Numbered from the stretch's first letter, positions 4,203 through 56,433 are shown. The stretch is 64,000 bases of DNA from GCF_055900595.2 NZ_CM148325.1; one strand, 5' to 3'. Numbers and translations: made by a program. The notes: a model not told the origin generated them from the letters alone.

Positions 4203-5991
4203 AGACTGTCTCATAATCTTTGTCGAACAGGTTGGCTATTTTACCACGAACTGTCAGGTGAGAGGTGACCGGATACGCAACCGCAAGATCCCACAAGCTC
4301 ACACCGCCCATTTTCACGGTTTGATACGGCCAGGAGGAGTAATCCTTATCATAGCGAGTGCCTAAATACTGATAAGTAATACCCCAGTCGAAGTCATACA
4401 ACTGCCAGTCGAGCTGGTATTTCACCTGCTGTTTAGCACGGCGTAACAACGGCGTGTCGGTAATTGCATTGCGCGCATCGACATAATCATAACTCACAGT
4501 ATGCGTCAGTGGTCCGGTATCAAAATTGGCGGTCGCCTCGACGCCCTTAATTCGCGCTTTCCCTTCGTTATAGTATTTCAGGGTGTGATCATCGTAATCG
4601 ATCAAGTCACTGACATCGTTACGATATCCAGAAATACGCCAGTTCACCCCAGCGGTTAAGCCTTCAAACGCGCCTTCCCACTGTTTGCTTTTCTCAGGTT
4701 CCAGATTTGGATTTCCGTAGAAGCCATACAGTTGTCCAAGATTTGGTGCCTTATAAGATGTCCCGTAGGAAGCAATGAAGCGATAGCCTTCGATGAATTC
4801 CCAACCAGCGCTGGTTTGCCAGGTTCCATGACGACCAAACTGTGAGTTATCGTCGCTGCGTGCTGCGCCTTCAAAGGTAAAATCGCCGACTTGTTGCAGC
4901 CCGGTCAGATAGATGCCGGTATTACGTTGATCATATCCATCCTCAACGTAACCTGTACCCGGCGTCGTAGTCTGTTTCTGCCAGTCGACACCCGCACCAA
5001 TACTACCGTGACCAACGATGACATTGTTTGCCCACTGGACGGTGTATTGCTTCATCTCATCAAGCGTCGCCGACGAATCATAACGACCATAATGCGGATC
5101 GTAGTTGTAATCTTTGCTATGGCTATAGCTGGTAATGAGTTGTGATTTAATCAGTTCGCCGTTATAGCGCAGCCCGGCGTCCCAACTTTGGCTATAGAGT
5201 TTACGGGTATCGAGCAACGGTGAGCCGGGAGAATAATATGCGTCATAATTGGTATGGTTATCATAGCCATAGCCGCGCACAAAACCGCTCCAGACATCAG
5301 TAAAGTTATGCTCCAGCGCGCCATAAAGCGTTTTACTTAAAAAACCATCGTTATCTGGCTGAGCTTGCGTTCCGGTATTACCATAGGCGACAACATCATA
5401 ACCATGAGTATGGGCATAATCGCCCAACAGCGTTACCCGTGTCTTATCTCCCAGTAGTTGCTGTGTAGAAACATCATAGTTCTGATAGCTATTGCTTCCC
5501 CACCCTGCTGAAATTTCCGTTCCGGGTTGATCGCGCGTCGTGATGATATTCACGACCCCACCTATTGCATCGGAACCATAAACAGCGGAGCGCGGCCCAC
5601 GGATATATTCAACACGCTGGACAAGCGCAATAGGGAACTGGCTAAGGTCGGCAGAACCACTCACCCCCGCCAGATTCAGGCGTACGCCATCAATTAACAC
5701 CAACACATGACTGGCATTTGTACCGCGAATAAAAATAGAAGAGAGTTGACCTGAACCGCCGTTTTGGGTGATATCGACACCCGGAAGACGGCGCAGCACA
5801 TCATTGACCGAGGTCGACTGCCAGCGGTCGATATCCTGACGCGTCACAACGGTGGTTGGTGCAAGCACAGTGCTGCGCGGCTGTTCAAAACGGTTAGCCG
5901 TAACGACGAGAGTATCCGGGCTGGTATCCTGTGCCCAAGCAGAAAATGCCGTGACGGAACACGCCGTCAGCAGCGAAGCTTTTTTAATCAT
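4147..5991 (-). CDS. btuB: TonB-dependent outer-membrane vitamin B12 transporter
   Basis: ORF 4147..6036; the mature start [20 protein letters not shown] gives 614 aa, the length I recall for BtuB. The TonB box (DTLVVTA) and C-terminal beta-barrel are present. The first 15 codons of the ORF belong to the leader. Confidence 0.93.
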
Positions 5992-6232
5992 TGTAAAGCA
6001 TCCACAATAGAAGAAGGATGCCGCAGGCTTCATCAATATTACGCGATGATGAGAACCAGATGCGACGTTAGCCGGCAGGTCTTCGGGCTTGGAGGGGTAT
6101 ATAAAATACTAAGAGATGATGACTTCCCACCGGATGGCAGTGTCCGCATAACGCAATCATCGCACCTTTCCTTACCGCTGCGCGTCAGCTCCAGATTTGC
6201 ACTGGATTCCCTATTAACTCACAGGACCGGCG
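5992..6232 (-). promoter_or_regulatory. cobalamin (B12) riboswitch in the btuB 5' leader
   Basis: Reverse complement matches the btuB leader as I recall it (GCCGGTCCTGTGAGTTAATAGGGAATCCAGTGCGAATCTGGAGCTGACGCGCAGCGGTAAGGAAAGGTGCGATGATTGCG...). Boundaries are approximate. Confidence 0.8.
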
Positions 6233-6359
6233 AGTGGATGCTACAGGTTGTAACAAGTTGCTGTCCAGACGTAGCTCACAAATAGAAATACATCAAGATC
6301 TGGACATCTGATGAGCAATCCCTACAATCGCCGCGTACATTTCATTTTCAGGATACATC

Positions 6360-11235: not shown

Positions 11236-11352
11236 GAAACGGAGCGGCACCTCTTTTAACCCTTGAAGTCACTGCCCGTTTCGAGAGTTTCTCAACTCGA
11301 ATAACTAAAGCCAACGTGAACTTTTGCGGATCTCCAGGATCCGCTTTTTTTT
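11236..11352 (+). ncRNA. oxyS: OxyS small regulatory RNA with intrinsic terminator
   Basis: Sequence GAAACGGAGCGGCACCTCTTTTAACCCTTGAAGTCACTGCCCGTTTCGAGAGTTTCTCAACTCGAATAACTAAAGCCAACGTGAACTTTTGCGGATCTCCAGGATCCGCTTTTTTTT matches oxyS; the 3' hairpin GCGGATC...GATCCGC is followed by a U-run. Confidence 0.92.
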
Positions 11353-11391: not shown

Positions 11392-12675
11392 TTACTCAAT
11401 CCGATCTTTGACAATAAAGAAGTAACACAGCGCCCCGGTGAACGTCACACAGGCCGCGATAACCAGCGCCAGATTAAACGAGTGCGTGGTATCCACTACC
11501 CAACCGGTTACGATCGGAGCAAAGGAAGCAAAAACAAAACTGCCAAAGTTTTGAATCCCGGCGATGGAAGCCACTTTTGTTTCTGACACCATCACCTGCA
11601 CCAGTCCCCATGCAGATGTTCCCGCGAAATGCACGCAGAACAGCGCCATTGAGATAAACGCTACAGCCTGGGCTGGCGAGGAGGATTGCACGACCAGCAA
11701 CGTGCCTAATGCCGACATCATCAAACCGCAGACAATAGCCGTTTTACGCGTCTTCGCCAGGTCGTAGCCTTTTTTCGCCAGCCGATCGACAACAATACCG
11801 TTAACCCACATCCCGACCGCCGCCGCGAGGAAAGGAATCGCCGCCACCCAACCGGTTTTCGCCAGACTGAAGCCTTGCTCGGCTTGTAAATAACCGGGTA
11901 ACCACGCGATGTAGAGCCAACCGGTATAATTGACGCCAGAGAAACCTAAAATCATCCCCCAGGTTGTCCGATGCTTAAACAGCGCCAGCCACTCGCTAAA
12001 TTGTAATTGTGGACGCGGTTTAACCGGCGCGGAGAGATAGGTCCGTTCTTCGTCGGTCAGGACAAACTGCGCCCGGTTGCGATACCACGCGTACCAACAG
12101 ATCCCAACCAGAATCCCCGCCACGCCGATGATGACGAACATTGCCCGCCAGCCCCATGCCAGCTGCATCAATACAAGAGCAGGAGGCGCAATAGCCTGAC
12201 CGATAACGGTAGATGAGTTAAAAATCCCCAGCGCCGTGCCGCGTTCTTTTTGCGCATACCAGTCGGTGATCGACTTTACTCCCGCAGGCATAAATGGCGC
12301 TTCGCCAATACCCAGACCGATACGCATTAAAATAAAGTGGCTAAAAGAATTAACCATTCCTGTTAATGCCTGCATTAATGACCAGAATATTAAGCCTGCA
12401 CCTAAAACTATTCGTGGGCCAAAGCGGTCTAGCAAAATACCGGAAGGGAGTTGTGAAAAACCATAAGACAGAGAAAATGCAGAAAGCAAAACGCCAAATT
12501 CTGTCGCCGATAATCCTAACTCGCCACGAATCGCTTCGCCTGCCACGCTCAATGACGAACGGTCGAGGAAATTAACGATCCCCGCCATAAATAATAAAAC
12601 CAGCGTTACTGTCTGAATACGACGAATCCGTTGCGGTTTATTACCCGCAACACTGGTTGACACATCAACGTCCAT
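11392..12675 (-). CDS. MFS transporter, anion:cation symporter family (sugar-acid permease, DgoT/GudP-like)
   Basis: 427-aa ORF with about 12 predicted TM segments and an N-terminal FLDRSSLSVAG motif, reminiscent of hexuronate/aldonate ACS-family permeases. Confidence 0.75.
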   Translation of the reverse strand: MDVDVSTSVAGNKPQRIRRIQTVTLVLLFMAGIVNFLDRSSLSVAGEAIRGELGLSATEFGVLLSAFSLSYGFSQLPSGILLDRFGPRIVLGAGLIFWSLMQALTGMVNSFSHFILMRIGLGIGEAPFMPAGVKSITDWYAQKERGTALGIFNSSTVIGQAIAPPALVLMQLAWGWRAMFVIIGVAGILVGICWYAWYRNRAQFVLTDEERTYLSAPVKPRPQLQFSEWLALFKHRTTWGMILGFSGVNYTGWLYIAWLPGYLQAEQGFSLAKTGWVAAIPFLAAAVGMWVNGIVVDRLAKKGYDLAKTRKTAIVCGLMMSALGTLLVVQSSSPAQAVAFISMALFCVHFAGTSAWGLVQVMVSETKVASIAGIQNFGSFVFASFAPIVTGWVVDTTHSFNLALVIAACVTFTGALCYFFIVKDRIE

Positions 12676-12741
12676 TTTTAGCTCCTTGAGCGGAATTAAT
12701 CGATTTGCTGACTATTCAGAAAATAATTAAGCGAACCGTTA

Positions 12742-13956
12742 TTACCAGTTCCACAATGTGCCATCTTCCAGTCGTGCGACGGGGAGATACGCCGGGTCAT
12801 ACGGATATTTCGCCGCCAGTTTCTCATCGAAAGAAATACCCAGCCCCGGTTCATCGCCTGGGTGCATATAACCTTCATCGAAGCGCCAGCTGTGCGGGAA
12901 GACTTCAAGCATTTGTTCGGAATAGCCCATGTACTCCTGAACACCAAAGTTTGGCACCCAGAGGTCAAAATGCAGCGCCGCCGCATGACAAACAGGCGAT
13001 AAATCTGAAGGGCCATGCGAACCGGTACGTACCTGATAAAGCGATGCAAAATCGGCAATCCGTCGCATCCCGGTAATGCCGCCTGCATGGGTAATCGTCG
13101 TGCGAATATAGTCAATCAGCTGCTCTTCGATTAACTGCTTGCAGTCCCAGATACTGTTAAACACTTCACCGACCGCAATCGGCGTCACAGTATGCTGGCG
13201 AATCAGACGAAAACATTCCTGGTTCTCGGCAGGCGTCGGATCTTCCATCCAGAACAGGCGGTAATCCTCTATGCTCTTCCCAAAGCGTGCCGCTTCGATA
13301 GGAGTCAGGCGATGGTGCATGTCATGCAACAGATGTTCGTTAAAACCGAACTTATTACGCACCGCTTCAAATAACTTCGGTGTAAAATCGAGATACTTTT
13401 CTGAAGACCACAACTGCTCTTCCGGCCACAGGCCTTTGGTTGCCGGTTCATACGCCAGTCCTTTGCCCTTCGCCAGGCCATAAGTGGTTTGCATACCCGG
13501 TACACCGCACTGCACACGAATCGCCTTAAAGCCCATCTGCTGGTGCTTTGCATAGTCTTCAAGGACTTCATCAATCGTGCGCCCGGTGGTGTGGCAATAA
13601 ACCATCACGCCTTCACGAGAAGCCCCACCAAGCAGTTGATACAATGGCATATTTGCCGCTTTGGCTTTGATATCCCACAACGCCATATCAATGGCAGAAA
13701 TGGCCGACATCGTGACGGGGCCACGTCGCCAGTAAGCACCTTTATAAAAGAATTGCCAGATATCTTCGATACGACTGGCATCGCGGCCAATTAATTGTGG
13801 ACAAAGATGATCTTTCAGATAAGAAGCGACCGACAATTCGCGACCATTTAATGTGGCATCTCCCAATCCACAAAGTCCGCTTGCAGTGGTTATTTTAAGC
13901 GTAACGAAATTACGTCCTGGGCAAGTAACAAAAACATCTGCAGCAATAATTTTCAT
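12742..13956 (-). CDS. enolase-superfamily dehydratase, RspA/ManD-like (putative D-mannonate/aldonate dehydratase)
   Basis: ORF 12742..14016; from the internal Met ([24 protein letters not shown]...) it is 404 aa and aligns along its whole length with the E. coli starvation-sensing protein RspA as I recall it. Confidence 0.8.
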
Positions 13957-14343
13957 TATTGCAATCTCCTGTGTTGTAAATAGACGCTTCAAACTTAATT
14001 TTACGCCTACTACCATACAAGAGAGAAAGAGCGATTATTCAACCGTGATCACATTAAAAATAAAAATTTCCACCGAGGAACAAAAATATCCTCAAATCTC
14101 ACCTACACTATTAACTACCATCGTTAAAACAACGTGTTAAATAATCACATAACAAATTCCTTTAAGGAAGGGAGTTATAACAACAACAAAAGATAATCAT
14201 ATTTTACTTAATTCAATACGTATCGATAGGTTTATTTAAAAAGGATTTTTCGGAATGAGAGATGAAAAGAAGATACACAAGCAGGAAGAAATACGATTAA
14301 TATTAGTTGCGGTAAGGGTAGCCGTTCCTCCCTTCCGCAACCC

Positions 14344-14444
14344 ATTAACCGTTGAAGTCACAGACTATTTCAGGCATTTCTCAACTCAAAATAACGACAG
14401 CCAACGTGAACTTTATGGCTCTCCAGGATCTGCTTTGTTTTCCA
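14344..14444 (+). other. degenerate duplicate of the oxyS 3' half (relic, not a functional gene call)
   Basis: Roughly 75-80% identity by eye to oxyS 11262..11352 on the same strand (shared blocks TTAACC, TTGAAGTCAC, TTTCTCAACTC, AGCCAACGTGAACTTT, CTCCAGGATC). The terminator stem is eroded. Ends exactly at the kinase stop codon. Confidence 0.6.
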
Positions 14445-15923
14445 TCAAACAACGGAGCTCAGCGCACTGGCTACCTGTTTAAAGCGAGCAAACCGTCGCC
14501 TGAGCATGTGTGCTTTTTCTACATTCGGTTCAAGACGAATCACGTTGAGCTGCGTAGCCTTCATGGCCTGTTTGAATCCAGAATAAGCCCCTCCTCCTAC
14601 TGCCGCACACATTGCAGCCGCTCTACAACCTGACTGTTCAATATCGACAATTTCAAGAGGCATTTTGCTGGCATCACAAAACATCTGCATCCAGATTCTG
14701 GAATGCGTTGGCCCGCCAGAGAAACGAATCGTTTGCAATGACTTATCAATCTCAATAAGACGGTCCTGATGCAACAAATGAGAAAAGACAATGCCCTGAT
14801 AAATAGCGTACACCAAATCTTCTCTTTTATGATGCCCACACAGCCCCAAAAATCCCCCGCTTAATGCCTCATGGTAATTCGAGCCAAACAACCACGGGAA
14901 AAAGAGAATATCATTCTGCTTCTCATACCCTCGTTCCACCCACTCATTAATCACCCGATAACTGTCAGGAAGATCCGGTAAAAATTGCTGCAAGAACCAT
15001 GTCAAATTACTGGCTGATGTAGGGCTTCCCTCATGGGCGAAAAATGTACCTGGAATGCTAAATTTCCCCCATACATAGGGATAATCAGAAGGAATAATGC
15101 GATCAAAGATTCGCGTTGCAATTGACCAGGTGCCAGCAACCGCACTTAACGTTGTACTGTCATAGATGCCAGAAGTGAGCGCCGCACCAACGACATCAAA
15201 AACACCACCAAAAACAGGCGTTCCGGCGAGAAGCCCACATTGGCTGGCTGCTTCAGATGTCACAAACCCAGCTAAATCAGCGGAGCCAATAATATCGGGA
15301 ACCTTACCCGCAACTTCCTTAATCTCAAATAGGCGAAAAAGTTCAGCATCATAAGCACTGGTATATTGATTATAAAAATTACTGCCTGAAATATTGGTTT
15401 CTTCACAAGCCAGTTTGCCAGTAAGCCGTGAACGTATGTAATCATGAACCATCAAAATGGTTCCGATGCGGCCATAATTGTCAGTCTCATGTTTTTTCAA
15501 CCAATGCAATAGTGCTACAGGGTGCGATGGCCAGAGCTGTTGCAGACTACGGTGATAACTTTCGCGGTCAATTCCTTGTTCTTTCCAGCTTGCAACCAGT
15601 TGTTGTGCGCGAGAATCAGAGGAAACAATGCCGTGTCGTAAGGGCTTACCTTGCCGGTCGAGCAGGTACAAACCTTTACCATGAGCAGAAAAACTGATGC
15701 CATCAATCTGACTCGCAGTAATATTGTTATCTGACATCGACAGTGAAATGACCTGGCACGTTACCTTCCATAACGCCTCCATGTCGCGTTCGCAAAAACC
15801 AGGACATGGGCTTAACAGAGGTAACGCCTGCGAAGAGACACCTATTTCACGTCCTTCTGCCGTATAAATTCCCGCTTTGGTTTCTGTACCACCTAAATCG
15901 ACACCAATAAAATACCGCTCCAT
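14445..15923 (-). CDS. FGGY-family carbohydrate kinase, L-xylulokinase (LyxK)-like
   Basis: 492-aa ORF with an N-terminal GVDLGGT phosphate-binding motif; global resemblance to E. coli LyxK/SgbK. Confidence 0.8.
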   Translation of the reverse strand: MERYFIGVDLGGTETKAGIYTAEGREIGVSSQALPLLSPCPGFCERDMEALWKVTCQVISLSMSDNNITASQIDGISFSAHGKGLYLLDRQGKPLRHGIVSSDSRAQQLVASWKEQGIDRESYHRSLQQLWPSHPVALLHWLKKHETDNYGRIGTILMVHDYIRSRLTGKLACEETNISGSNFYNQYTSAYDAELFRLFEIKEVAGKVPDIIGSADLAGFVTSEAASQCGLLAGTPVFGGVFDVVGAALTSGIYDSTTLSAVAGTWSIATRIFDRIIPSDYPYVWGKFSIPGTFFAHEGSPTSASNLTWFLQQFLPDLPDSYRVINEWVERGYEKQNDILFFPWLFGSNYHEALSGGFLGLCGHHKREDLVYAIYQGIVFSHLLHQDRLIEIDKSLQTIRFSGGPTHSRIWMQMFCDASKMPLEIVDIEQSGCRAAAMCAAVGGGAYSGFKQAMKATQLNVIRLEPNVEKAHMLRRRFARFKQVASALSSVV

Positions 15924-15939
15924 GATCCCTCCTTAGTTT

Positions 15940-16803
15940 CTAAATATTATCCCAGCCGGCAAAGCGCATTTTCTCTTCAATCCATTGACGTGCATGAATA
16001 ATTTCTAATAGAGGTTCCGTCGCTTTTTCTGTCCACATTTCTATCAGAAACGTTCCGCGATAATTAAGATTACGCAGGATCTTAAATAATTTAATAAAAT
16101 CTACACACCCTTCACCAAAAGGAACGTCACGAAATTGCCCTGGAGAATCAGGCGTTACTGGGTACGTATCTTTAAGATGGATTGCGGCAATTCGATCAAT
16201 CCCCTTTACCAGCTCACTTTCCAGTTCATTACCCCATGCGGTCAGATTGCCAACATCCGGATAAACGGTAAACCAAGGGGAATTAATTTTTGTATCCAGG
16301 ACTTTCCATTTACTAATAGAATTAATAAATGGCGTATCCATGATCTCTACAGCACACATAACTTGTGCCGCTGCGGCCTGTTCAGCTGTCCAGGCCATCG
16401 CATCTTCAAACCAGGCGATAGTTTCTTCATTCTGCGGCTCATAATAAACGTCATAGCCTGCCAGTTGGATTGTTCGAATCCCCAAATCCTGCGCCAGGCG
16501 TAACGCCTTCAACATAATCGTACGTGCCTGCTGACGAGTATCTCTATCATGGCTACCAAATGGAAAACGCCGGTGAGCAGACAGGCACATTGTCGGAATA
16601 CGGATCCCCGTTTGCTGAATGGCGCTAATAAGCTCCATACGCTCGGTGAGCGACCAGTCCAGGCGGGCGAGTCGTTCATCATTCTCATCTACCGACATCT
16701 CAACAAAATCAAAACCGCAAGATTTAGCCAGGGCTAGTTTCTCTACCCAACTGGTATTCCTGGGTAGCGCTTTTTCATAAATACCTAACGGGTGGCGTCG
16801 CAT
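15940..16803 (-). CDS. L-ribulose-5-phosphate 3-epimerase (UlaE/SgbU family, TIM barrel)
   Basis: 287-aa ORF; the N-terminal LGIYEKALP...FDFVEMSVDE...RLDWS...CLSAHRRFP pattern matches UlaE/SgbU closely. Confidence 0.82.
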   Translation of the reverse strand: MRRHPLGIYEKALPRNTSWVEKLALAKSCGFDFVEMSVDENDERLARLDWSLTERMELISAIQQTGIRIPTMCLSAHRRFPFGSHDRDTRQQARTIMLKALRLAQDLGIRTIQLAGYDVYYEPQNEETIAWFEDAMAWTAEQAAAAQVMCAVEIMDTPFINSISKWKVLDTKINSPWFTVYPDVGNLTAWGNELESELVKGIDRIAAIHLKDTYPVTPDSPGQFRDVPFGEGCVDFIKLFKILRNLNYRGTFLIEMWTEKATEPLLEIIHARQWIEEKMRFAGWDNI

Positions 16804-17879
16804 TATTTTCCCTCACGAGTGATCAATTGTTGTTGAAAGATTTTCCGGCTCTTATTCATGTCACGCTGCAACTGCCATTTTTGTTTGATGAATTTAAATG
16901 CCAGTGCGGCGATCAATGTGATCCCCCATACCGCCAGATTGAAATGCAAACTAAGTCCCAACAGACTAAGGCCGGTAGCAATAACCTGAAGCACAAGTAA
17001 GGCACAAAAAACATGACTGACTTTACCCGCCCCACCGAATGGATCTGTGCCTCCCAATACAATTGCAAGAACCGTCAAGAGCAGATAGGAATCGCCATAG
17101 CCCATACGCGCCGAATTAAATCGCGCGAGCATAATAAGACCTGCTAATACACACAACATGCTGGATATAGCATATATAGCAATTAATACGCGGTCGGTGC
17201 GAATACCGCTAAACCATGTGGCGTTAATATTACTGCCACACATATAAATCGTTTTTCCCGTACGGGTTTTGCCGAGGAACAGAGCTAAAGCAACGGTGGT
17301 GACGATAAAAATTATCATCGGTACTGGGATCCCCATGATAACTTCAGACCCAATACTGCGGACTACTGGTGGCATACCACTTAAAGCTGCCCCCTTAGTC
17401 AGGTAAATACCGATACCACTAATAATGGTCATGCTACCCAATGTGACCAAAATAGGGTGAGCGCCTATATGAGAAATAATTGACCCAGTAATAGCTCCAA
17501 TGATGATGGCAATAAGCATCGCCCCGACAATAGCCAGGAAGAGCCAAAACAACTGACTACCTGTAGATGCATCTGCGGGTACATATTGAATCAACAGCCA
17601 GGCCATAAACAGGCTGGTCAGATTCGCAGTACCGATGATTGCCAGATTGAGCCCCCCGCTCAACATGGGTATAAACATCGCAAACGTGAGCAACCCAAGC
17701 TCTGGCAATTGAAATGCAATGCTCAGAAAAGTATTGCCGGTGAAAAAACGCCCCGGCATTACCAGACTAAATAACACCACCGCAATAAAACATATTGATA
17801 ATAAGCCTGAACTGGTACCATCTAGTGGAAAAAATATCCGCTTGTTCATTTCGATCCTCCCGTTAGACGAAACCAACAT
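16803..17879 (-). CDS. monosaccharide ABC transporter permease (CUT2 family)
   Basis: 358-aa polytopic membrane protein immediately downstream of a paralogous permease. True start may be the internal Met (MNKRIFF) at 17849. Confidence 0.75.
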   Translation of the reverse strand: MLVSSNGRIEMNKRIFFPLDGTSSGLLSICFIAVVLFSLVMPGRFFTGNTFLSIAFQLPELGLLTFAMFIPMLSGGLNLAIIGTANLTSLFMAWLLIQYVPADASTGSQLFWLFLAIVGAMLIAIIIGAITGSIISHIGAHPILVTLGSMTIISGIGIYLTKGAALSGMPPVVRSIGSEVIMGIPVPMIIFIVTTVALALFLGKTRTGKTIYMCGSNINATWFSGIRTDRVLIAIYAISSMLCVLAGLIMLARFNSARMGYGDSYLLLTVLAIVLGGTDPFGGAGKVSHVFCALLVLQVIATGLSLLGLSLHFNLAVWGITLIAALAFKFIKQKWQLQRDMNKSRKIFQQQLITREGK

Positions 17880-18855
17880 CAGTTTCTTTACGTTTTTTGT
17901 AATGGGTCACACAAATCGCCGAGACAATAACCACTCCAATAACGATATTGACGAAATAACTCGAGATGCCAATCAAATTAAGGCCGTTTTTAAGAATACC
18001 GATAAGAAATACGCCCATAAGCGTACCAATGACCGTACCACGTCCGCCTGATAAACTGGCACCGCCCAATACCGCTGCAGCCAGCACATCCAACTCTCCG
18101 CCAACCAATGCATTCGGCACAACTTCACTCATACGGTAAGCTTGCAGCATTCCACCAATTGCTGCAGCGGCACCAAGATAACCATAAGCAAACAGATAAA
18201 TTAGCGACACCCGAATCCCAATACGTCTTGCTGATTCGGTATTCCCTCCCACGGCATAAAGCTGACGCCCAATATGGGTTTTGTTCATTATCATCCACGT
18301 CAGAAATGCCATTCCCAGCATAACCACTAACGGTAATCCGATCTGGTAATCTTCTCCGCCAAATTCAAAACTCAGGAAAGAACGCTGCGTAATCCACCAA
18401 TCCGGTAAATCGTAAATACTGTGGCCATTAGTCAACCACATCAACATACCGAACAGTAGCGACTGCATACTAATCGTAATGATGATGGAAACGACATTAA
18501 GGTAATAAATAAGAATAGCGTTTATCAAACCAAAAATGATGCCAAGAAAAACAGCAAACACCAGACAGAAAAATGGATTTGATAGCGTTTCATTAAGCAG
18601 TAACGACGCCACAACATATTGCACAACCGAAGCTACTGCTGCAAAAGAGATATCAATTCCGCCAGTAACCAATACGACAAATAATCCGAGGGCGAAAATA
18701 CCCGTTACGGCATAACTTTCCGAGAGATCGAGCAAGTTCTGTATTGATAAAAACTCATCGCTCATGATGGAAAAAAATACCAGCATGAGAACAATGACCC
18801 ATCCTAACCAAGCTTCGACTGAACGAGGAAACCGCAGCCGCATAAAGCTAACCAT
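17863..18855 (-). CDS. monosaccharide ABC transporter permease (CUT2 family)
   Basis: 330-aa polytopic membrane protein; start overlaps the ATPase stop by 8 nt (translational coupling). Confidence 0.75.
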   Translation of the reverse strand: MVSFMRLRFPRSVEAWLGWVIVLMLVFFSIMSDEFLSIQNLLDLSESYAVTGIFALGLFVVLVTGGIDISFAAVASVVQYVVASLLLNETLSNPFFCLVFAVFLGIIFGLINAILIYYLNVVSIIITISMQSLLFGMLMWLTNGHSIYDLPDWWITQRSFLSFEFGGEDYQIGLPLVVMLGMAFLTWMIMNKTHIGRQLYAVGGNTESARRIGIRVSLIYLFAYGYLGAAAAIGGMLQAYRMSEVVPNALVGGELDVLAAAVLGGASLSGGRGTVIGTLMGVFLIGILKNGLNLIGISSYFVNIVIGVVIVSAICVTHYKKRKETDVGFV

Positions 18856-20365
18856 TAATCACCTCCGCCAACTGCTGCTCGGTATAATTCGAAGGCAACA
18901 GCTCATTAATAATCTTTCCGCGCTTCATATGAAAAATACGATCGCAGTTATAATAAGCTTCTGGTGCTTCATCAGTAATTAATATCACTGAAATACCCAC
19001 ACCTGAAAGCCGATGAATAAGCTGGTAAATACTATCTTTTGCGCCAATATCTACACCTACCGTTGGCGCATCCAGAATTAAAACCTTAGGTCGTGTTAAA
19101 ATCCATTTAGCCAGGACAACCTTTTGTTGATTGCCGCCAGATAGCGTTGAAAGTGGATTATTTGGATCGGTGACTTTAATATCCAAATCCTGGATCCACT
19201 CCTTGACTAAGGTTTCTTTTCGATTTTCATCAATAAACCCCGATGCCGTCTTTAAACGATCCAGAATCGAGAGCACCATATTATCGCTGATAGATTGGGG
19301 TAATACGGCCCCCAGTGTCAGGCGATCTTCTGAAACATATGCTATTCCCAGTTTTACCGCATGCGTGTTGTCTTTAATTGTAACGGGCTTACCTTCCAGA
19401 TAAATATCACCACTATCTGGTCGAGTAATACCGAAAAGACTCAATGCTAATTCAGTTCTCCCCGCACCAAGTAAACCACACAATCCCAGAACCTCGCCCT
19501 GGTGTAGTTTTAGAGAAACATCTTCAAATTGCCCTTTTCTGCATAATTTGTTTAGTTCAAGGACTACTTTGCCTTCAACGCTATTTGGTAGCTTCTTCTG
19601 GTGGACTATAGTTTTTCCGGTCATTAACTCAGTAATATCGCCCGGAGAAAGTTGATTGGCAGCCCACGTTCCAATTATCTCTCCATCACGGATGACCGTA
19701 ATCCGATCTGAAATTTCCTTAACTTCATCAAGGCGGTGGCTAACAAAAACTACGGTAATATTTTTATCGCGTAAGTAATTCACTGTGCGTAGTAATTGAT
19801 TAACTTCTGTACGCGTCAATGATGCCGTTGGCTCGTCCATGATGACTAAGCGGGCATCGGCAATCAGAGCCCGGCAAATCGCGACCTGTTGGCGTTGTGC
19901 AATCGGCAAATGTTGTACTAACGCATCAGGATCGAGATTGAATTGCAGCTCCTGAATTATTTTCTGCGATACATCTCGAAGTTGTTTTTTTCTGTGCAGC
20001 CCTAAATATCCCTTCAGGTTGTATTCAAAAGCGATATTTTCAGCAACAGAAAGATTTGGGAATAAAGAAAGATCCTGATATATCACCTGAATACCCAGTT
20101 CCCGAGCTTTATCAGGAGAAAGACGAGTCCAGGACTTACCATCTATAATAATTTCACTTCCCGAATCAGGGACATAAACACCACACAGCGTTTTGATCAG
20201 AGTACTTTTACCACACCCATTCGCACCAGCAAGACAATGAACCTCACCTTTATTTAAGGTAAGATTGATATTCTTTAGAGCCCTATGGCCACCGAAACTT
20301 TTCGTTAGTGACCTTAGCGTCACTAATGGTTGCTCCGCATTCTTCTCTATAATATGAGGCATCAT
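18848..20365 (-). CDS. sugar ABC transporter ATP-binding protein with duplicated nucleotide-binding domains
   Basis: 505-aa ORF with Walker A GANGCGKST, a second P-loop GLLGAGRTE and the ABC signature LSGGNQQKV; architecture of RbsA/AraG/LsrA-type importers. Confidence 0.85.
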   Translation of the reverse strand: MMPHIIEKNAEQPLVTLRSLTKSFGGHRALKNINLTLNKGEVHCLAGANGCGKSTLIKTLCGVYVPDSGSEIIIDGKSWTRLSPDKARELGIQVIYQDLSLFPNLSVAENIAFEYNLKGYLGLHRKKQLRDVSQKIIQELQFNLDPDALVQHLPIAQRQQVAICRALIADARLVIMDEPTASLTRTEVNQLLRTVNYLRDKNITVVFVSHRLDEVKEISDRITVIRDGEIIGTWAANQLSPGDITELMTGKTIVHQKKLPNSVEGKVVLELNKLCRKGQFEDVSLKLHQGEVLGLCGLLGAGRTELALSLFGITRPDSGDIYLEGKPVTIKDNTHAVKLGIAYVSEDRLTLGAVLPQSISDNMVLSILDRLKTASGFIDENRKETLVKEWIQDLDIKVTDPNNPLSTLSGGNQQKVVLAKWILTRPKVLILDAPTVGVDIGAKDSIYQLIHRLSGVGISVILITDEAPEAYYNCDRIFHMKRGKIINELLPSNYTEQQLAEVING

Positions 20366-20428
20366 AATATTCCTGAATACGACTAAAGGAATTCCGGGTC
20401 AAATTTGACCCGGTGATTTACAGTAAAA

Positions 20429-21433
20429 TTACAAGCCTAGCTTCACTAAACGTCGTGTATTTTCAAGATCGAGCTTTTCTGGATTATCACTATAAATAGT
20501 GTTGTTATTAACCTTGATCTCGCCCATATCACCGATTTTTACACCGTCTTTAATAGGTTCACCGTTCATCATTGCCGTCGCAACCTGGACAAAAACCTTA
20601 CCCGCAATCATAGGGTTTGAAATATATCCCCCATCAATGGCACCTTTTTCGAGTAGCTTAATTCCCTGACCTGGAGTGAAGGTTCCAAAAACGCAAATTG
20701 CATCATTTTTCTTCCGCTTATCAATAGCACGCCCCGCACCAATTGGTCCTTGTGAACCAAATGACATAATGCCTTTAAGATCTTTATATTTAGACATTAA
20801 ATCGTTCGTCGTGCGCATTGAATCATCCACCGACTCAGCAACACCAAAACGATCTTCAACCAACGTCATATTTGGATAATGTTCTTTTTGATAGGCAATC
20901 GCGGCATTGGCCCAGTCATTTACCAAAGGCACAGTCAGACTGCCGACAAACATGGCGTATTTACCTTCTTCGCCCATACACTTCGCCATATCTTTCATAT
21001 GATTGGCACCCATTGTCTGGGTATTTAACAACTCAAAATCCCAATCTGCATTTTTTTGATCTGGTGATTCGTGGGTAATAACTTTAATACCGGCTTCTTG
21101 TGCACGCTTAAGTACAGGTTCAAGAACCTTTGCATCGTTAGGAACAACACCAATAACATCCACTTTTCGTGCAATTAAATCTTCAATCGCCCGAACCTGT
21201 TCAGCTGGATCTGCCGTTGTAGGGCCGACCTGCCATGCATCAACCCCCAATAGTTTTCCTTCATTTTTAATGCCTTGTTCCATCACATTAAACCAGGGAA
21301 TTCCACCGACTTTTACTACTACCCCCATCGTAAAAGGTTTATTCGCTTTTTGTGATGTTACAGTCTGATCAGCCCATGCAGCAGTGGAAGATAATACGGT
21401 AGCAATAAGGCAGGGTAAGATTAATTTTTTCAT
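20429..21433 (-). CDS. periplasmic sugar-binding protein (type I PBP, ABC substrate-binding component)
   Basis: 334-aa ORF with an N-terminal signal peptide (MKKLILPCLIATVLSSTAAWA) and LsrB/RbsB-like fold features; first gene of the transporter operon. Confidence 0.75.
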   Translation of the reverse strand: MKKLILPCLIATVLSSTAAWADQTVTSQKANKPFTMGVVVKVGGIPWFNVMEQGIKNEGKLLGVDAWQVGPTTADPAEQVRAIEDLIARKVDVIGVVPNDAKVLEPVLKRAQEAGIKVITHESPDQKNADWDFELLNTQTMGANHMKDMAKCMGEEGKYAMFVGSLTVPLVNDWANAAIAYQKEHYPNMTLVEDRFGVAESVDDSMRTTNDLMSKYKDLKGIMSFGSQGPIGAGRAIDKRKKNDAICVFGTFTPGQGIKLLEKGAIDGGYISNPMIAGKVFVQVATAMMNGEPIKDGVKIGDMGEIKVNNNTIYSDNPEKLDLENTRRLVKLGL

Positions 21434-21555
21434 CGTAATTTCCTTAAGAAATAGTTCAGGTGTCAGGAAAACTCGATATAATATCGACCTGACTATTTAT
21501 ATAATTTATAATCCCTTAGGCATTGATTAATAATTTAGACAATAAATAACGCCTA

Positions 21556-22365
21556 TTATTTATCAACCTCCACAATGTTTAATTGTGGAAATTGTGTTCG
21601 ATACCGAGTATCTGTACAAACATTAGTCACCAGAATATCGATTTCATCCAGCGTGCATATTTTACTAAATGCATACTGTTCAAACTTAGTGGAGTCGACC
21701 AGCAATATTTTTTGTCCTGACACCTGAAGCATCACCTGTTTAAGTCTGGCATTAATTTCACTGCCATCGCGGACACCATTCCCCAGATTCAACCCCTGGC
21801 ATGAAAAGAAAAAACTGTTGATTTGAAAATTTCGGATCGCACTCTCTGCAACCGGGCCATGAAAATCATCATGTCGCTCAGAATACTCACCACCGATACC
21901 AATAATTCGAACTCGATCACGGCAAGCTAACGCCTGAATTATCCGTAATGAATTTGTAACTACGGTAACATCTATATCGGGAATTTGACGAGCTAAAAAC
22001 CAACAAGTACTACTGTTATCCATTAAAATACAATCACCAGGGTGAATAAATTGCAATGCGGCCTTCGCAATTCTGGCTTTTATATCAGGATTTTCTTCAG
22101 TCCGTTTACGGAATGATTCCGCACGATCGATACTATTATCTTGCCACGCATTATCGGCGAGCATAACCGGAGCGCTATCAGATGAATCCAGAGCGACCGC
22201 GCCACCAAAGCTACGGATTAACTTTTTGTTGCGCTCCAGTACCGTTAAATCCCGACGAATTGTCTCAGGAGACGCTTTAAATAATCGTGATAATTCAGTT
22301 ACCCGCACAGCACCTTGTTTTTGTACATGTGCGCATATCATTTTATGGCGCTCTGCCTGCAACAT
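21556..22365 (-). CDS. DeoR-family transcriptional regulator
   Basis: 269-aa ORF with an N-terminal HTH (VRVTELSRLFKASPETIRRDLTVLE) and a C-terminal DeoR sugar-phosphate-binding domain. Confidence 0.8.
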   Translation of the reverse strand: MLQAERHKMICAHVQKQGAVRVTELSRLFKASPETIRRDLTVLERNKKLIRSFGGAVALDSSDSAPVMLADNAWQDNSIDRAESFRKRTEENPDIKARIAKAALQFIHPGDCILMDNSSTCWFLARQIPDIDVTVVTNSLRIIQALACRDRVRIIGIGGEYSERHDDFHGPVAESAIRNFQINSFFFSCQGLNLGNGVRDGSEINARLKQVMLQVSGQKILLVDSTKFEQYAFSKICTLDEIDILVTNVCTDTRYRTQFPQLNIVEVDK

Positions 22366-22806
22366 AGTATCGGTCCGTTATTATCAAATTAGCATGCTTA
22401 TATAATTAACTGTTCCCTCATAAAATAAAGTGATAGGAATCAAGATTCATTTTATAATTATAATCGCAAACAGGAATGGTGATCTTTATCACAAATTAAA
22501 TTGAGAACACTCTACTATTTGACATTACTTTGAGATATCGGTCACTAAATAAGTCTTATTCTGCCATCTAACGAAAAATTTAAATACAAAAACAAAAATA
22601 ATCGGGCATAGCAATCGCTTCCATTCATGACCGAATACGCCCGAATAAAACCGTTTATACCCACTTATCCTCTTTCGTTGCCTTCTTACATGCCTTGAAT
22701 ATTTTACATTTCTTATATTCAGCGTAATTTAGGAAACATAATTTATGAGCAAAAAAAGCCCAAACTCAAAAGTTAAAGTTTATTTATATAATACATACAG
22801 ATTATC

Positions 22807-23511
22807 GTGGAGTTAAAAATGGATATGCTAAAGGAAAAAGTTCTTGCTGCGAATTTATCATTACCCCTTCATCAGTTAGTGACGTTTACCTGGGGAAATG
22901 TTAGTGGTGTTGATCGCGAAAAAGGTGTCATGGTTATTAAACCTTCTGGGGTCGAATACAGCCAAATGGGCATTGCAGATATGGTGGTAGTGGATTTACA
23001 AAGTGGTGAAGTTATTGATGGACACAGGAAACCCTCTTCAGACACCGATACTCATCTGGCGCTATACCGTGCTTTCCCGGATATTGGTGGTATCGTTCAT
23101 ACCCATTCCCGACACGCCACAATATGGGCTCAGGCCGGAAAAGATCTCACGGCCTTTGGGACAACCCACGCTGATTATTTCTACGGCACTATCCCCTGTA
23201 CACGCCCCATGAAGGATGACGAAATTAATGGACAATATGAATATGAAACGGGGCGAGTGATTATTGAAACGTTCAGACAACGAGAAATATCTCCCGCTGA
23301 CATTCCGGCTGTTTTAGTAAACAGTCATGGCCCCTTTGCCTGGGGAACTGATCCCGCGAACGCCGTGCATAACGCCGTTGTACTTGAAGAAATTGCCTAT
23401 ATGAATCTCTTTACACAACAACTACAGCCCCATCTTACGGCTATTCAACAGCCTCTACTGGATAAGCATTTTTTACGCAAGCATGGTGCCAATGCTTATT
23501 ACGGGCAGTAA
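22807..23511 (+). CDS. L-ribulose-5-phosphate 4-epimerase (class II aldolase fold, AraD/SgbE/UlaF family)
   Basis: 234-aa ORF closely resembling AraD ([74 protein letters not shown]), including the conserved metal-binding His residues. Confidence 0.85.
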
Positions 23512-23560
23512 CCCTCTTAGCATGGCCTGGCGTTTTGCCAAGCCATAAATCGCCTAAGAC

Positions 23561-24934
23561 TTACTCCAACCGCGCCTGCGCAAAAGCAATCGCCTGCGCC
23601 ACCTGCTGCGGTGAGACGCCGCCTTTTGCCGCACGCTTGTCGAGGCACGATTGCAGCGACAGAATCGGATAGACATCTTCGCCAATCACCTGACTGAATT
23701 TCTGCAACTCACTGAGCGGCAGATCTTCCAGCGGTTTGCCCTGACGAATGGCTTCCACCACCGCTTCACCAACAATATGGTGCGCCTCGCGGAACGGCAC
23801 ACCTTTCGCCACCAGGTAATCCGCCAGTTCAGTGGCGTTCGCATACCCCTGCTGCGCCGCTTCCTGGCAACGTGGGCGTTTCACCTGAATGCCGTCCAGC
23901 ACCAGCGCCGCCATATGCAGGCAGTCCAGCCAGGTATCGAGCGCGTCGAACAGACCTTCTTTGTCTTCCTGCATATCTTTGTTATAAGCCAGCGGCAAAC
24001 CTTTCAGCGTCATCATCATGCCAGTCAACGCGCCCTGAACACGACCGCATTTACCGCGAATCAGCTCCAGCGCATCCGGGTTTTTCTTCTGCGGCATTAA
24101 TGATGAACCGGAAGTCACGCGATCAGAAAGCTCCACAAAACCCGCTTCGCCGGTGTTAAAGAAAATCAGATCTTCGGCAAAACGCGACAAATGCACCATA
24201 CCGATAGCGGCGGCAGAAAGCAGTTCCAGCACGTGGTCGCGGTCAGAAACGCTGTCGAGACTGTTACGGGTCGCCGAAGCAAAGCCCAGCCAGCCTGCTA
24301 ACTGTTCACGGTCGATTTCATAGGCCGTTCCCGCTAGTGCGCCACAGCCTAACGGGCTGACATCCAGACGCTTAAGCGCATCCTGCAAACGGCTTTCATC
24401 ACGCGCCAGCATCTCAACATAGGCCAGGCACCAGTGCGCGAACGTCACCGGTTGGGCGCGTTGCAGGTGAGTGTAACCTGGCATTACCGCGTCCTGATTG
24501 TTTTGTGCGGTTTCCACCAGCGCCGATTGCAGCTGTCGGTTAGCCGTCAGCAACTCGCTAACGGTATCCTTGCACCACAGTTTCAGATCGGTCGCCACCT
24601 GATCATTACGGCTACGCCCGGTGTGCAGTTTTTTGCCTAACTGGCCCACTTTGTCGATCAGTTTGCCTTCCACCCAGCTATGGATATCTTCGGCGTCGCT
24701 TTCAAGAATTTGTTGTGGCCTGGCGCGAACATCTTCCAGCAGCACATTGAGCGCCTCTTCCAGTTGCACCTGTTCTTCTGCGGTTAACACGCCTACCGTT
24801 ACCAGCGCTTTGGACCAGGCCACAGAGCCAACAATATCCTGCTCCGCCAGACGGTAATCAAAGCGCAGTGAGTCGTTGAATTGTTTAAACCGTTGATCTG
24901 CTGCCTGGGTAAAACGCCCGCCCCAAAGTGCCAT
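23561..24934 (-). CDS. argH: argininosuccinate lyase
   Basis: 457-aa ORF ([44 protein letters not shown]...) with the fumarate-lyase signature [12 protein letters not shown]. Confidence 0.95.
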
Positions 24935-49237: not shown

Positions 49238-50797
49238 TTATTTAATATCTTTCACGCGCATACCGTTGATCTGTTCATCCGTGATGGTGTTACCCGCTTT
49301 AAAGTAATCAACCACCGCGTGATAAACGTAATAACCGCCCGTCGTATTGCGCGCTTTACCCTCGGTAAACGCGGTAAAACCATCTCCACCATCAGCAAGG
49401 AAACTCTGAGTAGCAATGTGGTAAACCGTCGCATCTTCAATCGGTTTGCCATTCAGCGTCAGCGAGATAACCCGCTGACCAACCGGCTTGCTGCTGTCGT
49501 ACTTCATTTCCAGGCCTTTCGATACCTGTAAAACGCCATTACTTAAACTTGCGCCGTGTTCCATCAAACCGCGTAATTGTTTACCCGTGAGTTCCATCGT
49601 CACCAGTTCGTTGGGGAACGGGAAGGTACTGATGACGCCACCCATCGTAATTGCACCCGCCGGGATCTCATTGCGAATCCCACCAGAGTTGGTTAACGCC
49701 AACTGGGTATTTTTACCCGCCGCTACCAGTAAAGCGTCCGCCGCCAGGTTCCCCAGGGATGCCGATTCACCATAGGCACGTTTTAATTCAACTGGCGATT
49801 GCGCCACCGTTTGCTGCACGACTTCATCCAGCTTTTTATTCCAACTATCAATCACCTGTTTTGTTTGCGCATCGGGCTTCCACTCGTCGGCGTAAAGGGT
49901 TTTAAGCTCGAAGTTTTTCACCGTAAAAGTGTGCGGTTTCTCTTTGTAGTCGAGAACCAGTTTACCCACATCAATCCCACCGCTGTCAGTGGAGAGGATG
50001 AGCGTATTGCCGACTTTAATCGGTTCCGGCGTACCCACATGTGCATGCCCGGTGATCAAAATATCCAGCCCTTTCACCTGACTTGCCGTCTGAATATCTT
50101 TATCCAGTGCGCGGCGCACATCTGTGCCCCCCATACTGGACTGGCGGGCCGGAACACCTTCGTGAATCAGCGCAACGGTCAAATCAACCTTGCCTTTGAG
50201 TTCATCGATATAACGTTGTAGCCATTTAATTTCATCACGCGCCTCAATACCCACTCGCGTTGCCGCAGATACCGTATCATTAAAGGCAAATACACCGTGC
50301 AAACCTATAACACCAATTTTCACGCCGTCTTTTTCAATAATGGTATATGGCTTATCCCAGAATGATTTACTGCTGTTCTGATAAAAAACATTACCCTGCA
50401 CAATCGGGAATTGTGCCTGACTCAACTGTAATAACGTATTGTCCCAGCCGTGATCAAATTCATGATTACCTATAGTGGCCGCATCGAACGGCATGGTATT
50501 CATAATATCGATAATCGCCTTGCCTTTAGTCAGGCTGCTGATATACGGCCCGGTAAAATAGTCACCCGCATCAAAAAACCAGGTCGCTTTGTTTTTAGCT
50601 TTTTCTTGTTTAACAAGCGTAGTGATATTTGCCCAGCCGCCAATATCCCGTTTACCCTCAGCAATCCACGGCACTTTATAGGGCTCTACATGTGCGTGGA
50701 GGTCATTGGTATAAATAATGGTGACATCTTTGGCGCAGGCCCAAAACGGCAGTGTTAATGCGATACCCGCAGCAAGCATTTTAATTTTCATAAACAA
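49238..50797 (-). CDS. secreted 5'-nucleotidase / UDP-sugar hydrolase family metallophosphoesterase (UshA-like), paralog 1
   Basis: 519-aa ORF with a signal peptide ([18 protein letters not shown]), calcineurin-like motifs ([30 protein letters not shown]) and a C-terminal 5'-nucleotidase domain with the FPF nucleobase clamp. Start may be M3 or M7. Confidence 0.8.
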
Positions 50798-50923
50798 TCC
50801 CTTCCAGTGAGATAAAGGATTGCTACATTACGTTCTGAAAGGCTTTTTTATGTGAGAATACTCACATCCAGAGGCAATAACTGTAGGACAAAATCGACGA
50901 CCTTATGAAATCGTTGGTGATAT

Positions 50924-52051: not shown

Positions 52052-52280
52052 TCAATACACTCGACAAACGACCATAAATTAATGGGATCACTATTTCTCA
52101 TTTAATTAAATATATGAATGTATGACTGAAAAATATAATCACAGTCAATGTTTAATTAATAACATTATTTGTTACTAAGATCACATAATACTTTCCTGAC
52201 CTATGCTTACATAAAAATAAGACACGGAGTTCCTTTTATTTAAATAATTCAACCAATGTAACAACCCCTATCAAGGAGGG

Positions 52281-53834: not shown

Positions 53835-53868
53835 AATATCATTTATCAGTCTATTTATTTAACAAGGA

Positions 53869-55494: not shown

Positions 55495-55504
55495 TAAAAA
55501 AATT

Positions 55505-55540
55505 ATAATGCCATTCATTCACTGAATGGCATTATTTTTC
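55505..55540 (+). terminator. intrinsic terminator after nucleotidase paralog 3
   Basis: Hairpin AATGCCATTCA-TTCAC-TGAATGGCATT followed by ATTTTTC. Confidence 0.7.
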
Positions 55541-55572
55541 TCTAAATCAACAATAAATAATGAGATATATTT

Positions 55573-56433
55573 ATGTGTATAAAAAAGCACGGGATAGCTT
55601 TATCGATTCTATTAATACCTTGCATTGGAAACGCTCAGGAAATTAAAAGTGAGGAAGGCTGGTTACATCAAAGCTTGAATGTCATTGGTCGCACAGACTC
55701 TCGCTTTGGCCCAAGGCTGACTAACGACCTCTACCCTGAATATACTGTAGCAGGAAGAAAAGACTGGTTTGATTTTTATGGTTATGTTGATCTACCAAAA
55801 TTCTTTGGCGTCGGCAGTCACTATGATGTTGGGATCTGGGATGAGGGCTCACCACTATTTACGGAAATAGAACCTCGGTTTTCCATTGACAAATTGACCG
55901 GATTAAATCTTGCGTTCGGCCCTTTTAAAGAATGGTTCATTGCAAACAACTATGTCTATGATATGGGTGACAACCAGTCATCCCGGCAAAGTACATGGTA
56001 TATGGGGCTTGGTACAGATATCGACACGGGTCTACCAATTAAGCTTTCTGCCAATATATACGCCAAGTATCAGTGGCAAAACTATGGTGCCGCTAATGAA
56101 AATGAATGGGACGGATATCGATTCAAAATAAAATATAGCATTCCTCTTACCCATTTATTCGGAGGGCGATTGGTATACAATAGTTTTACTAACTTTGATT
56201 TTGGCTCCGATCTTGCGGACAAATCACACAATAATAAACGAACCAGTAATGCTATTGCTTCAAGCCATATCCTTTCCCTGCTATATGAACACTGGAAATT
56301 TGCATTTACACTACGTTATTTTCACAACGGTGGACAATGGAATGCTGGGGAGAAAGTTAACTTCGGAGATGGTCCATTTGAATTAAAAAACACAGGATGG
56401 GGAACCTATACTACTATTGGTTATCAATTTTAA
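55573..56433 (+). CDS. Tsx-family outer-membrane nucleoside-specific channel (paralog of tsx)
   Basis: 286-aa ORF with a signal peptide ([23 protein letters not shown]). Long blocks match E. coli Tsx as I recall it ([83 protein letters not shown]), and the C-terminal aromatic residue is typical of beta-barrels. Confidence 0.85.

Follow-up and report, generated by a model that had tools for sequence, protein, structure and literature searches.

The yiaK-S (lyxK-sgbH-sgbU-sgbE) and ula (ulaD-E-F) operons share a downstream route in which L-xylulose 5-phosphate (L-xylulose-5-P) is converted to L-ribulose-5-P and then to D-xylulose-5-P. For a free pentulose, a 2025 study described AauA of enterohaemorrhagic Escherichia coli (EHEC; PDB 9I1M), a protein that binds alpha-D-ribulofuranose with a dissociation constant (Kd) of 2 uM and prefers D-ribulose over L-arabinose (∼300-fold by Kd, >200-fold as stated in the paper), and Rbl of Citrobacter rodentium, a related dedicated D-ribulose locus with its own kinase (PMC12307932). 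Here, we analysed a 64,000-nucleotide stretch of NZ_CM148325.1 (GCF_055900595.2), referred to throughout as the window, and focused on an eight-gene module inserted between manD and argH of this E. coli chromosome. The module has the downstream chemistry of yiaK-S and ula, and shares with Aau and Rbl the binding-protein family, the transporter make-up and five of the six ligand contacts. Judged from its sequence, it is probably a complete catabolic unit, spread by horizontal transfer, that serves a free L-ketopentose, L-xylulose being the most plausible candidate.

In the proposed pathway, a secreted AauA-family (ketose-binding) protein would catch the sugar in the periplasm, and an ATP-binding cassette (ABC) sugar importer of the CUT2 type, consisting of one double ATPase and two permeases, would carry it into the cell. 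A LyxK-like kinase would convert L-xylulose to L-xylulose-5-P, an SgbU-like enzyme would form L-ribulose-5-P by C3 epimerisation, and a divergently transcribed SgbE-like enzyme would form D-xylulose-5-P by C4 epimerisation, feeding the pentose phosphate pathway. A DeoR-family protein would probably repress both transcription units until a phosphorylated intermediate builds up. Gene identities, synteny, distribution and the binding-site substitutions are observed in the sequences, and what we infer is the ligand, the substrate of the kinase, the inducer and every regulatory step. It is almost certain that the genes are what they are called here; that the module handles a free L-ketopentose is likely, and that L-xylulose is the principal substrate is a reasonable, slightly less secure, expectation. 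The insertion and its eight genes are as follows:

14278..23560, no strand: the whole inserted module, delimited by the break in homology with E. coli O104:H4 and lower in G+C content than its flanks
14445..15923, minus strand: FGGY kinase, LyxK-like, predicted L-xylulose kinase (42% identity to K-12 LyxK)
15940..16803, minus strand: L-xylulose-5-P/L-ribulose-5-P 3-epimerase of the SgbU/UlaE type (NF009689, TIGR00542, SgbU identity)
16803..17849, minus strand: ABC permease 2 (CUT2-type sugar ABC permease models; start from RefSeq)
17863..18855, minus strand: ABC permease 1 (sub-cut-off matches to CUT2-type models, among them RbsC and AraH)
18848..20365, minus strand: ABC ATPase with two nucleotide-binding domains (full-length matches of 400-450 bits to XylG, AraG and RbsA models)
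20429..21433, minus strand: AauA-family periplasmic solute-binding protein, a predicted receptor for a ketopentose (PDB relatives)
21556..22365, minus strand: DeoR/GlpR-family regulator (FucR, SrlR and AgaR models at ∼155-160 bits, UlaR at 112)
22819..23511, plus strand: L-ribulose-5-P 4-epimerase of the AraD/SgbE type, divergent from the regulator (TIGR00760, NF009002, SgbE identity)

The genes named in the original prediction (LyxK-like kinase, both epimerases, ABC importer and DeoR regulator) were present and intact, with two minor start-codon corrections. The mechanical open reading frame (ORF) of permease 2 reaches 17879 and the RefSeq start is 17849; the 4-epimerase probably starts at ATG 22819, as RefSeq has it in an identical genome, and not at GTG 22807. 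RefSeq names for the key island genes go no further than 'FGGY-family carbohydrate kinase' and 'substrate-binding domain-containing protein'. The XylG, AraG and RbsA matches of the ATPase and the FucR, SrlR, AgaR and UlaR scores of the regulator all fell beneath the respective model cut-offs. The predicted lack of an isomerase, dehydrogenase or decarboxylase in the operon also held, since no further ORF with a family match was found inside the module. It contains no SIS or KpsF gene, and an Rfam scan found no RNA family within it.

Unlike yiaK-S and ula, the module is without a 3-keto-L-gulonate-6-P decarboxylase, reductase, lactonase or a tripartite ATP-independent periplasmic (TRAP) or phosphotransferase system (PTS) transporter. 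Its uptake genes are solely of the sugar ABC (CUT2) type, with neither the PTS (UlaABC) nor the TRAP (YiaMNO) type present, its 4-epimerase is divergently transcribed, and its regulator is DeoR-type yet below the UlaR cut-off. As in Rbl, the transporter and a dedicated FGGY kinase share one operon. Unlike Aau and Rbl, the kinase is LyxK-like and not of the TIGR01315 type, two L-series epimerases stand in place of a KpsF-like isomerase, the genomic site and the regulator are different, and in the binding protein His167 is replaced by Val and a family-invariant Trp by Ser.

Coupling of this route to an ABC importer had been put forward as a distinct arrangement. This is so relative to ula and yiaK-S, but the arrangement is not unique, as it is also found in Klebsiella, Serratia and Vibrio (with a dehydrogenase) and in Histophilus somni (with a decarboxylase; PMC3224263). 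The H. somni cluster, rbs1BAC-xylB(lyxK)-rmpA(sgbH)-sgbU-araD, likewise places an ABC importer beside LyxK-, SgbU- and AraD-type genes, and differs from the module in having a decarboxylase, a gluconolactonase and an RbsB-like binding protein (PMC3224263). Since it includes a decarboxylase and a gluconolactonase, we read it as a hexonate/ascorbate-type route.

Conservation of the eight-gene unit

A genome collection with one genome per species was scanned for the kinase. All eight genes, in the same order and orientation, were found in 21 species-representative genomes of seven other genera, namely Citrobacter, Atlantibacter, Serratia, Erwinia, Pantoea, Yersinia (including Y. pestis) and Providencia. 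The module lies directly between argH and oxyR in Citrobacter and Atlantibacter (oxyR recognised by eye from its N-terminal sequence), and its flanks elsewhere are unrelated, for example tdh in Providencia and a FumA-like gene in Yersinia (names assigned by eye). Across the flanks of the orthologous loci examined, no further gene, catabolic or other, was conserved beside the module in any genus. In particular, no dehydrogenase, isomerase or decarboxylase was conserved near it in these 21 genomes, nor was there an ORF for a 3-keto-L-gulonate-6-P decarboxylase (UlaD/SgbH) in the module or its conserved neighbourhood. Because the same eight genes recur with unrelated flanks and without any other conserved neighbour, the unit is exactly these eight genes; their recurrence in the same order in 21 genomes of seven genera likewise means that the grouping is not due to chance. 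Gene overlaps and short gaps are such that the stretch from the binding protein through to the kinase fits a single operon.

The kinase was the fastest-evolving module gene in every species pair (window versus loci L003-L023). The E. coli kinase is 60-70% identical to its orthologues, compared with 75-95% for the transporter proteins. Between E. coli and Atlantibacter the kinases are 70% identical (∼81% expected), whereas the value is 81% between Citrobacter and Atlantibacter, and the other genes are about equally similar. Replacement or mosaicism of the kinase gene was considered and rejected, since the DNA comparison gave no breakpoint and a uniform ∼75% identity to both Citrobacter and Atlantibacter; the E. 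coli copy is simply somewhat more diverged.

In Y. pestis NCTC5923 (L020), an extra ∼0.7 kb lies between the binding-protein and ATPase genes (4497-5357). This insert, missing from Y. similis, carries an ORF (4697-5206) that by eye resembles an IS200-type transposase, and the IS200-like element may be polar on the operon.

Binding protein, kinase and epimerases

The N-terminus of the binding protein resembles a signal peptide, as read from the sequence. Its best solved relatives were 3D02, a Klebsiella structural-genomics entry, and 9I1M, which is AauA (E ∼1e-84); the AauA alignment (5e-84) covers 272 residues without a gap at 49% identity. The sugar contacts reported for AauA are K37, W43, E118, H167, E196 and S223, of which His167 sandwiches the sugar ring and makes hydrogen bonds to the hydroxyls at C2 and C4 (PMC12307932). 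Equivalents of K37, W43, E118, E196 and S223 are preserved in the window protein, and the sole changed contact is His167, which corresponds to Val171. To place this change, 29 orthologues from eight-gene modules were compared with 108 other homologues, comprising more distant proteins (54-68% identity) and AauA. Position 171 is Val in every orthologue (29/29) and His in every other homologue (108/108). A second position behaves in a similar way, being Ser272 in 29/29 orthologues and Trp in 107/108 of the others; the literature was searched for a counterpart, Trp266 of LsrB, with no relevant result.

Since the equivalent of His167 is a valine that is fixed in 29 orthologues, we would not class this protein as a D-ribulose receptor. 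L-xylulose is the C4 epimer of D-ribulose, and L-ribulose is the D-ribulose enantiomer, differing at both C3 and C4. The altered contact reads the C4 hydroxyl, where L-xylulose and D-ribulose differ, and a change limited to this residue is what a specificity switch between these two sugars would be expected to bring. The two preserved pocket glutamates would favour a neutral ligand and not an anion such as ketogulonate.

The His-type relatives in Pectobacterium and Pantoea are encoded with a DeoR regulator, an ABC transporter, a D-allulose-6-P 3-epimerase (AlsE), an allose kinase (AlsK) and a ribokinase-like gene. These loci, L024-L027 (Pectobacterium parmentieri and Pantoea sp. At-9b), are the operons of the closest His-type paralogues, and the Pantoea sp. 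At-9b locus also has a second binding protein and a nucleoside hydrolase. D-allulose, D-allose or a riboside may be their substrate. With these loci and the Amaricoccus contig described below, the family looks like a collection of importers for ketoses, joined to interchangeable catabolic cassettes.

The kinase matched E. coli K-12 LyxK over its full length (42% identity, 411 bits). It scored beneath the cut-offs of the XylB, LsrK, GlpK, AraB and RhaB models, and reached only 94 bits against the D-ribulokinase model TIGR01315 (cut-off 409) and 42-68 bits against ribulokinase models. There is no LyxK-specific model among its NCBIfam matches, and 42% identity to LyxK is typical of a broad LyxK-like clade: the window kinase and all related kinase clades examined are ∼42% identical to the K-12 protein. 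In the cases examined, relatives of the kinase co-occur with an L-ribulose-5-P 3-epimerase-like gene and mostly also with a 4-epimerase-like gene. More distant relatives adjoin AP_endonuc_2 genes (in one case with Aldolase_II as well) or polyol dehydrogenase genes.

Both epimerases were assigned by equivalog models. The 3-epimerase passed both NF009689 (475 bits, cut-off 200) and the TIGR00542 equivalog (457 bits, cut-off 272), and is 71% identical to K-12 SgbU. It is intact within the operon in every genome examined, with 70-98% pairwise identity among representative genomes. The 4-epimerase scored 414 bits against the TIGR00760 araD equivalog (cut-off 389) and 434 bits against NF009002 (cut-off 386), and is 72% identical to K-12 SgbE.

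The closest non-orthologous kinase clade (52-56% identity) is found in Klebsiella (L029), Serratia (L030) and Vibrio (L031). Like the module, these clusters combine an ABC importer, a LyxK-like kinase and both L-ribulose-5-P epimerases. Their remaining genes encode an ATPase, a single permease, an RbsB-like binding protein of 304 amino acids, a medium-chain dehydrogenase dependent on Zn, and a regulator that is DeoR in Klebsiella but LacI-type in Serratia and Vibrio, whereas the window module has no dehydrogenase and a ketose-type receptor. Presumably, the clusters import a polyol that is oxidised inside the cell to a free L-pentulose for the kinase; a xylitol or L-arabitol route via L-xylulose is predicted. 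Reportedly, a xylitol-4-dehydrogenase operon of similar design exists in Pantoea ananatis. In the Klebsiella, Serratia and Vibrio clusters, the route must pass through the free L-pentulose. By comparison, our module, which is without a dehydrogenase and has a receptor of the ketose and not the polyol/ribose type, is the arrangement that direct uptake of the pentulose would predict.

Clusters of this polyol-dehydrogenase, RbsB-like and LyxK-like kind are widespread and apparently uncharacterised. The sequence cluster of the Klebsiella kinase by itself comprises 829 members. Pasteurella skyensis (L036) has the Zn-dependent polyol dehydrogenase, RbsB-like importer and LyxK-like kinase too, but in place of the epimerases it carries a second FGGY kinase and a short-chain dehydrogenase/reductase.

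Candidate substrates

The pathway logic of the original prediction, in which the kinase, the 3-epimerase and the 4-epimerase act in turn on a substrate that enters as a ketopentose, gains support from the AauA-family receptor, the change at the C4 contact, the dehydrogenase-bearing sister clade and the lack of any extra conserved gene. Several points weigh against L-xylulose as the substrate. Identity to the nearest characterised proteins is modest for both the kinase (42% to LyxK) and the receptor (49% to AauA), and LyxK is said to act on 3-keto-L-gulonate as well. The His-to-Val and Trp-to-Ser replacements both run from large to small, and could equally accommodate a larger or otherwise different ligand. 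Nor is the His/Val split a proven specificity code, because a His-type protein named for Amaricoccus macauensis also adjoins genes of the FGGY kinase, class II aldolase-fold and AP_endonuc_2 types; on its contig, the kinase is a distant FGGY member, the aldolase is FucA-like and a further protein resembles psicose-3-epimerase. If L-ribulose were the substrate, the 3-epimerase would be redundant yet harmless. Finally, our literature search found no characterisation of the module, of L-xylulose uptake or of a dedicated L-xylulose importer; genome-scale models assign L-xylulose transport to YiaMNO (PMC6138749).

The module might instead serve mainly for L-ribulose or scavenge L-ketopentoses broadly, with the kinase acting as an L-ribulokinase, the 4-epimerase essential and the 3-epimerase just widening the range. 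In agreement, the 4-epimerase qualifies fully as an araD equivalog, ketopentoses are known ligands of the binding-protein family, and FGGY pentulose kinases are often promiscuous, AraB for instance phosphorylating D-ribulose (PMC12307932). The 3-epimerase would then be unnecessary, yet it has been kept, intact and well conserved, in every genome examined, and the kinase is LyxK-like and not AraB-like, as the low ribulokinase-model scores indicate. Moreover, L-ribulose differs from D-ribulose at C3 and C4, but only the residue contacting C4 and C2 is altered. We therefore give this explanation a slim chance. A small chance, too, is all that we allow the proposal that the remodelled pocket (H171V, W272S) binds some other neutral compound, such as L-lyxose, a ketohexose or a polyol, which a host enzyme encoded outside the module would have to process. 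Two residues that are invariant in the other family members (W in 107/108) have indeed been replaced by smaller ones, and the close His-type relatives are tied to the hexose-type enzymes AlsE and AlsK. It is also general knowledge that E. coli rhamnose isomerase can turn L-lyxose into L-xylulose. Against this, the seven other genera show no conserved helper gene next to the module, and dependence on a host enzyme would be unparsimonious for a mobile module; the polyol-using sister modules bring their own dehydrogenase and a different type of binding protein; and both epimerases are >70% identical to enzymes of known pentulose-5-P specificity.

Import of an ascorbate-derived acid, either 3-keto-L-gulonate or 2,3-diketo-L-gulonate, with host UlaD or SgbH decarboxylating the product of the LyxK-like kinase, would be in keeping with 3-keto-L-gulonate being, reportedly, the physiological substrate of K-12 LyxK. 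Some databases label orthologues of the kinase '3-keto-L-gulonate kinase', and in H. somni an ABC-linked lyxK cluster does come with a decarboxylase and a lactonase (PMC3224263). We consider this route very unlikely, as no decarboxylase was found in or beside the module in any of the 21 genomes and as reliance on separately regulated host operons would be unparsimonious for a mobile module. In addition, the binding protein is of a neutral-sugar type common in CUT2 systems, and its two pocket glutamates would be expected to repel an anion. Autoinducer-2 (AI-2), which the original prediction had named as a possible unrelated ligand, has next to no chance. Lsr-like uptake and processing of AI-2 would share with the module the general layout of a sugar ABC (CUT2-type) importer, an FGGY kinase and a repressor; the binding protein bears a weak likeness to LsrB and the kinase to LsrK, and some relatives of the binding protein are automatically annotated as 'autoinducer 2 binding protein'. 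All the Lsr equivalog models, however, scored far beneath their cut-offs in bits (LsrB 103 against 384, LsrK 138 against 528, LsrA 401 against 586, LsrC 125 against 388 and LsrD 114 against 500), which effectively refutes an Lsr reading. LsrF, LsrG and LsrR are absent, and two pentulose-phosphate epimerases are present instead.

For the preferred substrate, L-xylulose, a stronger proposal is that the AauA-family receptor underwent a genuine specificity switch (His171Val with Trp272Ser) that created the first dedicated high-affinity bacterial importer of free L-xylulose, or else that the pocket recognises a ligand not yet known as a bacterial nutrient. We consider this unlikely, although it would matter if true. 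L-xylulose arises in the mammalian glucuronate-xylulose pathway, from which it is excreted in urine, and also in fungal L-arabinose catabolism. With a true switch, the minority of E. coli lineages that have the module, as well as Yersinia, Providencia and plant-associated Erwiniaceae, would have a carbon source of their own in the host, in parallel with D-ribulose for EHEC and C. rodentium. Should the main L-xylulose reading be confirmed, an accessory island that lacks functional annotation, present in ∼3% of complete E. coli genomes and in Yersinia, Providencia, Citrobacter, Serratia, Erwinia and Pantoea, would receive a function, and the D-ribulose importers lately shown to affect colonisation of the gut would have a counterpart for an L-ketopentose. 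Confirmation would also offer a natural two-residue example of retuned stereospecificity in this binding-protein family, and correct the genome-scale models that route L-xylulose via YiaMNO. Since all the enzymatic steps are known chemistry, the gain would lie in transport, ecology and specificity and not in mechanism.

Control regions and island context

DeoR-family regulators usually answer to sugar phosphates, and by analogy L-xylulose-5-P or L-ribulose-5-P would therefore be the likely inducer. The candidate control elements are as follows:

20394..20413, minus strand: G+C-rich hairpin between the binding-protein and ATPase genes (8-bp stem, 6 G-C pairs, no T-run after it)
21462..21493, no strand: near-perfect palindrome GTCAGG-N5-TCGATATAATATCGA-CCTGAC upstream of the binding-protein gene
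22366..22818, no strand: divergent control region, from a footprinting alignment of ten genera

The hairpin is possibly an mRNA stabiliser or an attenuator. By alignment, the palindrome is kept in Citrobacter and Atlantibacter, and it is a candidate operator or 5′ untranslated region hairpin; a promoter-like site is present at 21566-21539 on the minus strand. Within the divergent region, the ten-genera alignment revealed two CRP-like sites (22478-22495 and 22531-22546) and conserved ATTCGGnCA boxes that form an inverted repeat (22599-22610/22636-22647), and a promoter-like site is present at 22430-22458 on the plus strand. The CRP-like and ATTCGGnCA sites are candidate regulatory sites, and the former suggest that the module may be under catabolite control.

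The module is carried by a 9,283-bp insertion (window 14278-23560). Homology to the module-less E. coli O104:H4 stops at window position 14277 and resumes at 23561, and in O104:H4 the island site is occupied by a 172-bp spacer that by eye resembles a repetitive extragenic palindromic (REP)-type repeat. The G+C content of the island is 0.40-0.45 compared with ∼0.52 in the flanks. Window 14000-23600 is 100% identical to E. coli strain Z0117EC0005, in whose annotation the gene order is trmA, fabR, sthA, oxyR, MFS (major facilitator superfamily) transporter, manD, island, argH, argB and argC. Among complete E. coli genomes, 146 of 5,426 (∼3%) carry the island, in every case on the chromosome. Many of the carriers are clinical isolates from humans and dogs, and one is labelled ST38.

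The island occurs in E. coli as two allele groups, ∼98% identical to one another. The ratio of non-synonymous to synonymous divergence (pN/pS) between the two alleles is 0.06-0.44 for the module genes, which are therefore under purifying selection within E. coli. Between the window and L032, pS is 0.016-0.06 in the module, compared with 0.085 for manD and 0.14 for argH, i.e. two- to eight-fold lower in the module. This suggests that the module moved among E. coli lineages more recently than its flanks diverged. The kinase gene is intact in nearly all E. coli carriers, and is split by the insertion sequence IS1 in at least three genomes: L032 (NZ_CP195442.1, 3446-5700), NZ_CM151361.1 and NZ_CP139846.1; a urine isolate from New Zealand is among such carriers. 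Because IS1 interrupts the kinase gene in these carriers, the module is inactive in part of the E. coli population.

The MFS transporter gene and the gene for a D-mannonate dehydratase (ManD, enolase superfamily) lie at window 11392-13956, between oxyR/OxyS and the module. This pair occurs without the module in E. coli O104:H4, and partial matches in many genomes suggest that it is common in other E. coli. In Citrobacter and Atlantibacter, the argH-oxyR interval does not contain the pair, and the interval has therefore been filled at least twice.

A second island of low G+C content (0.39-0.46) adjoins metF at window 49238-56433. It contains three paralogous UshA-like 5′-nucleotidase/phosphoesterase genes (49238-50797, minus strand; 52281-53834 and 53869-55494, plus strand), a gene for a 375-amino-acid protein with no NCBIfam match (50924-52051, plus strand) and a Tsx-like nucleoside channel gene (55573-56433, plus strand), and looks like a nucleotide-scavenging island. 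Elsewhere in the window, positions 1-2972 hold part of a ribosomal RNA operon (23S, tRNA, 16S), a cobalamin riboswitch lies at 6057-6246, and the small RNA OxyS is encoded at 11236-11345, divergent from oxyR.

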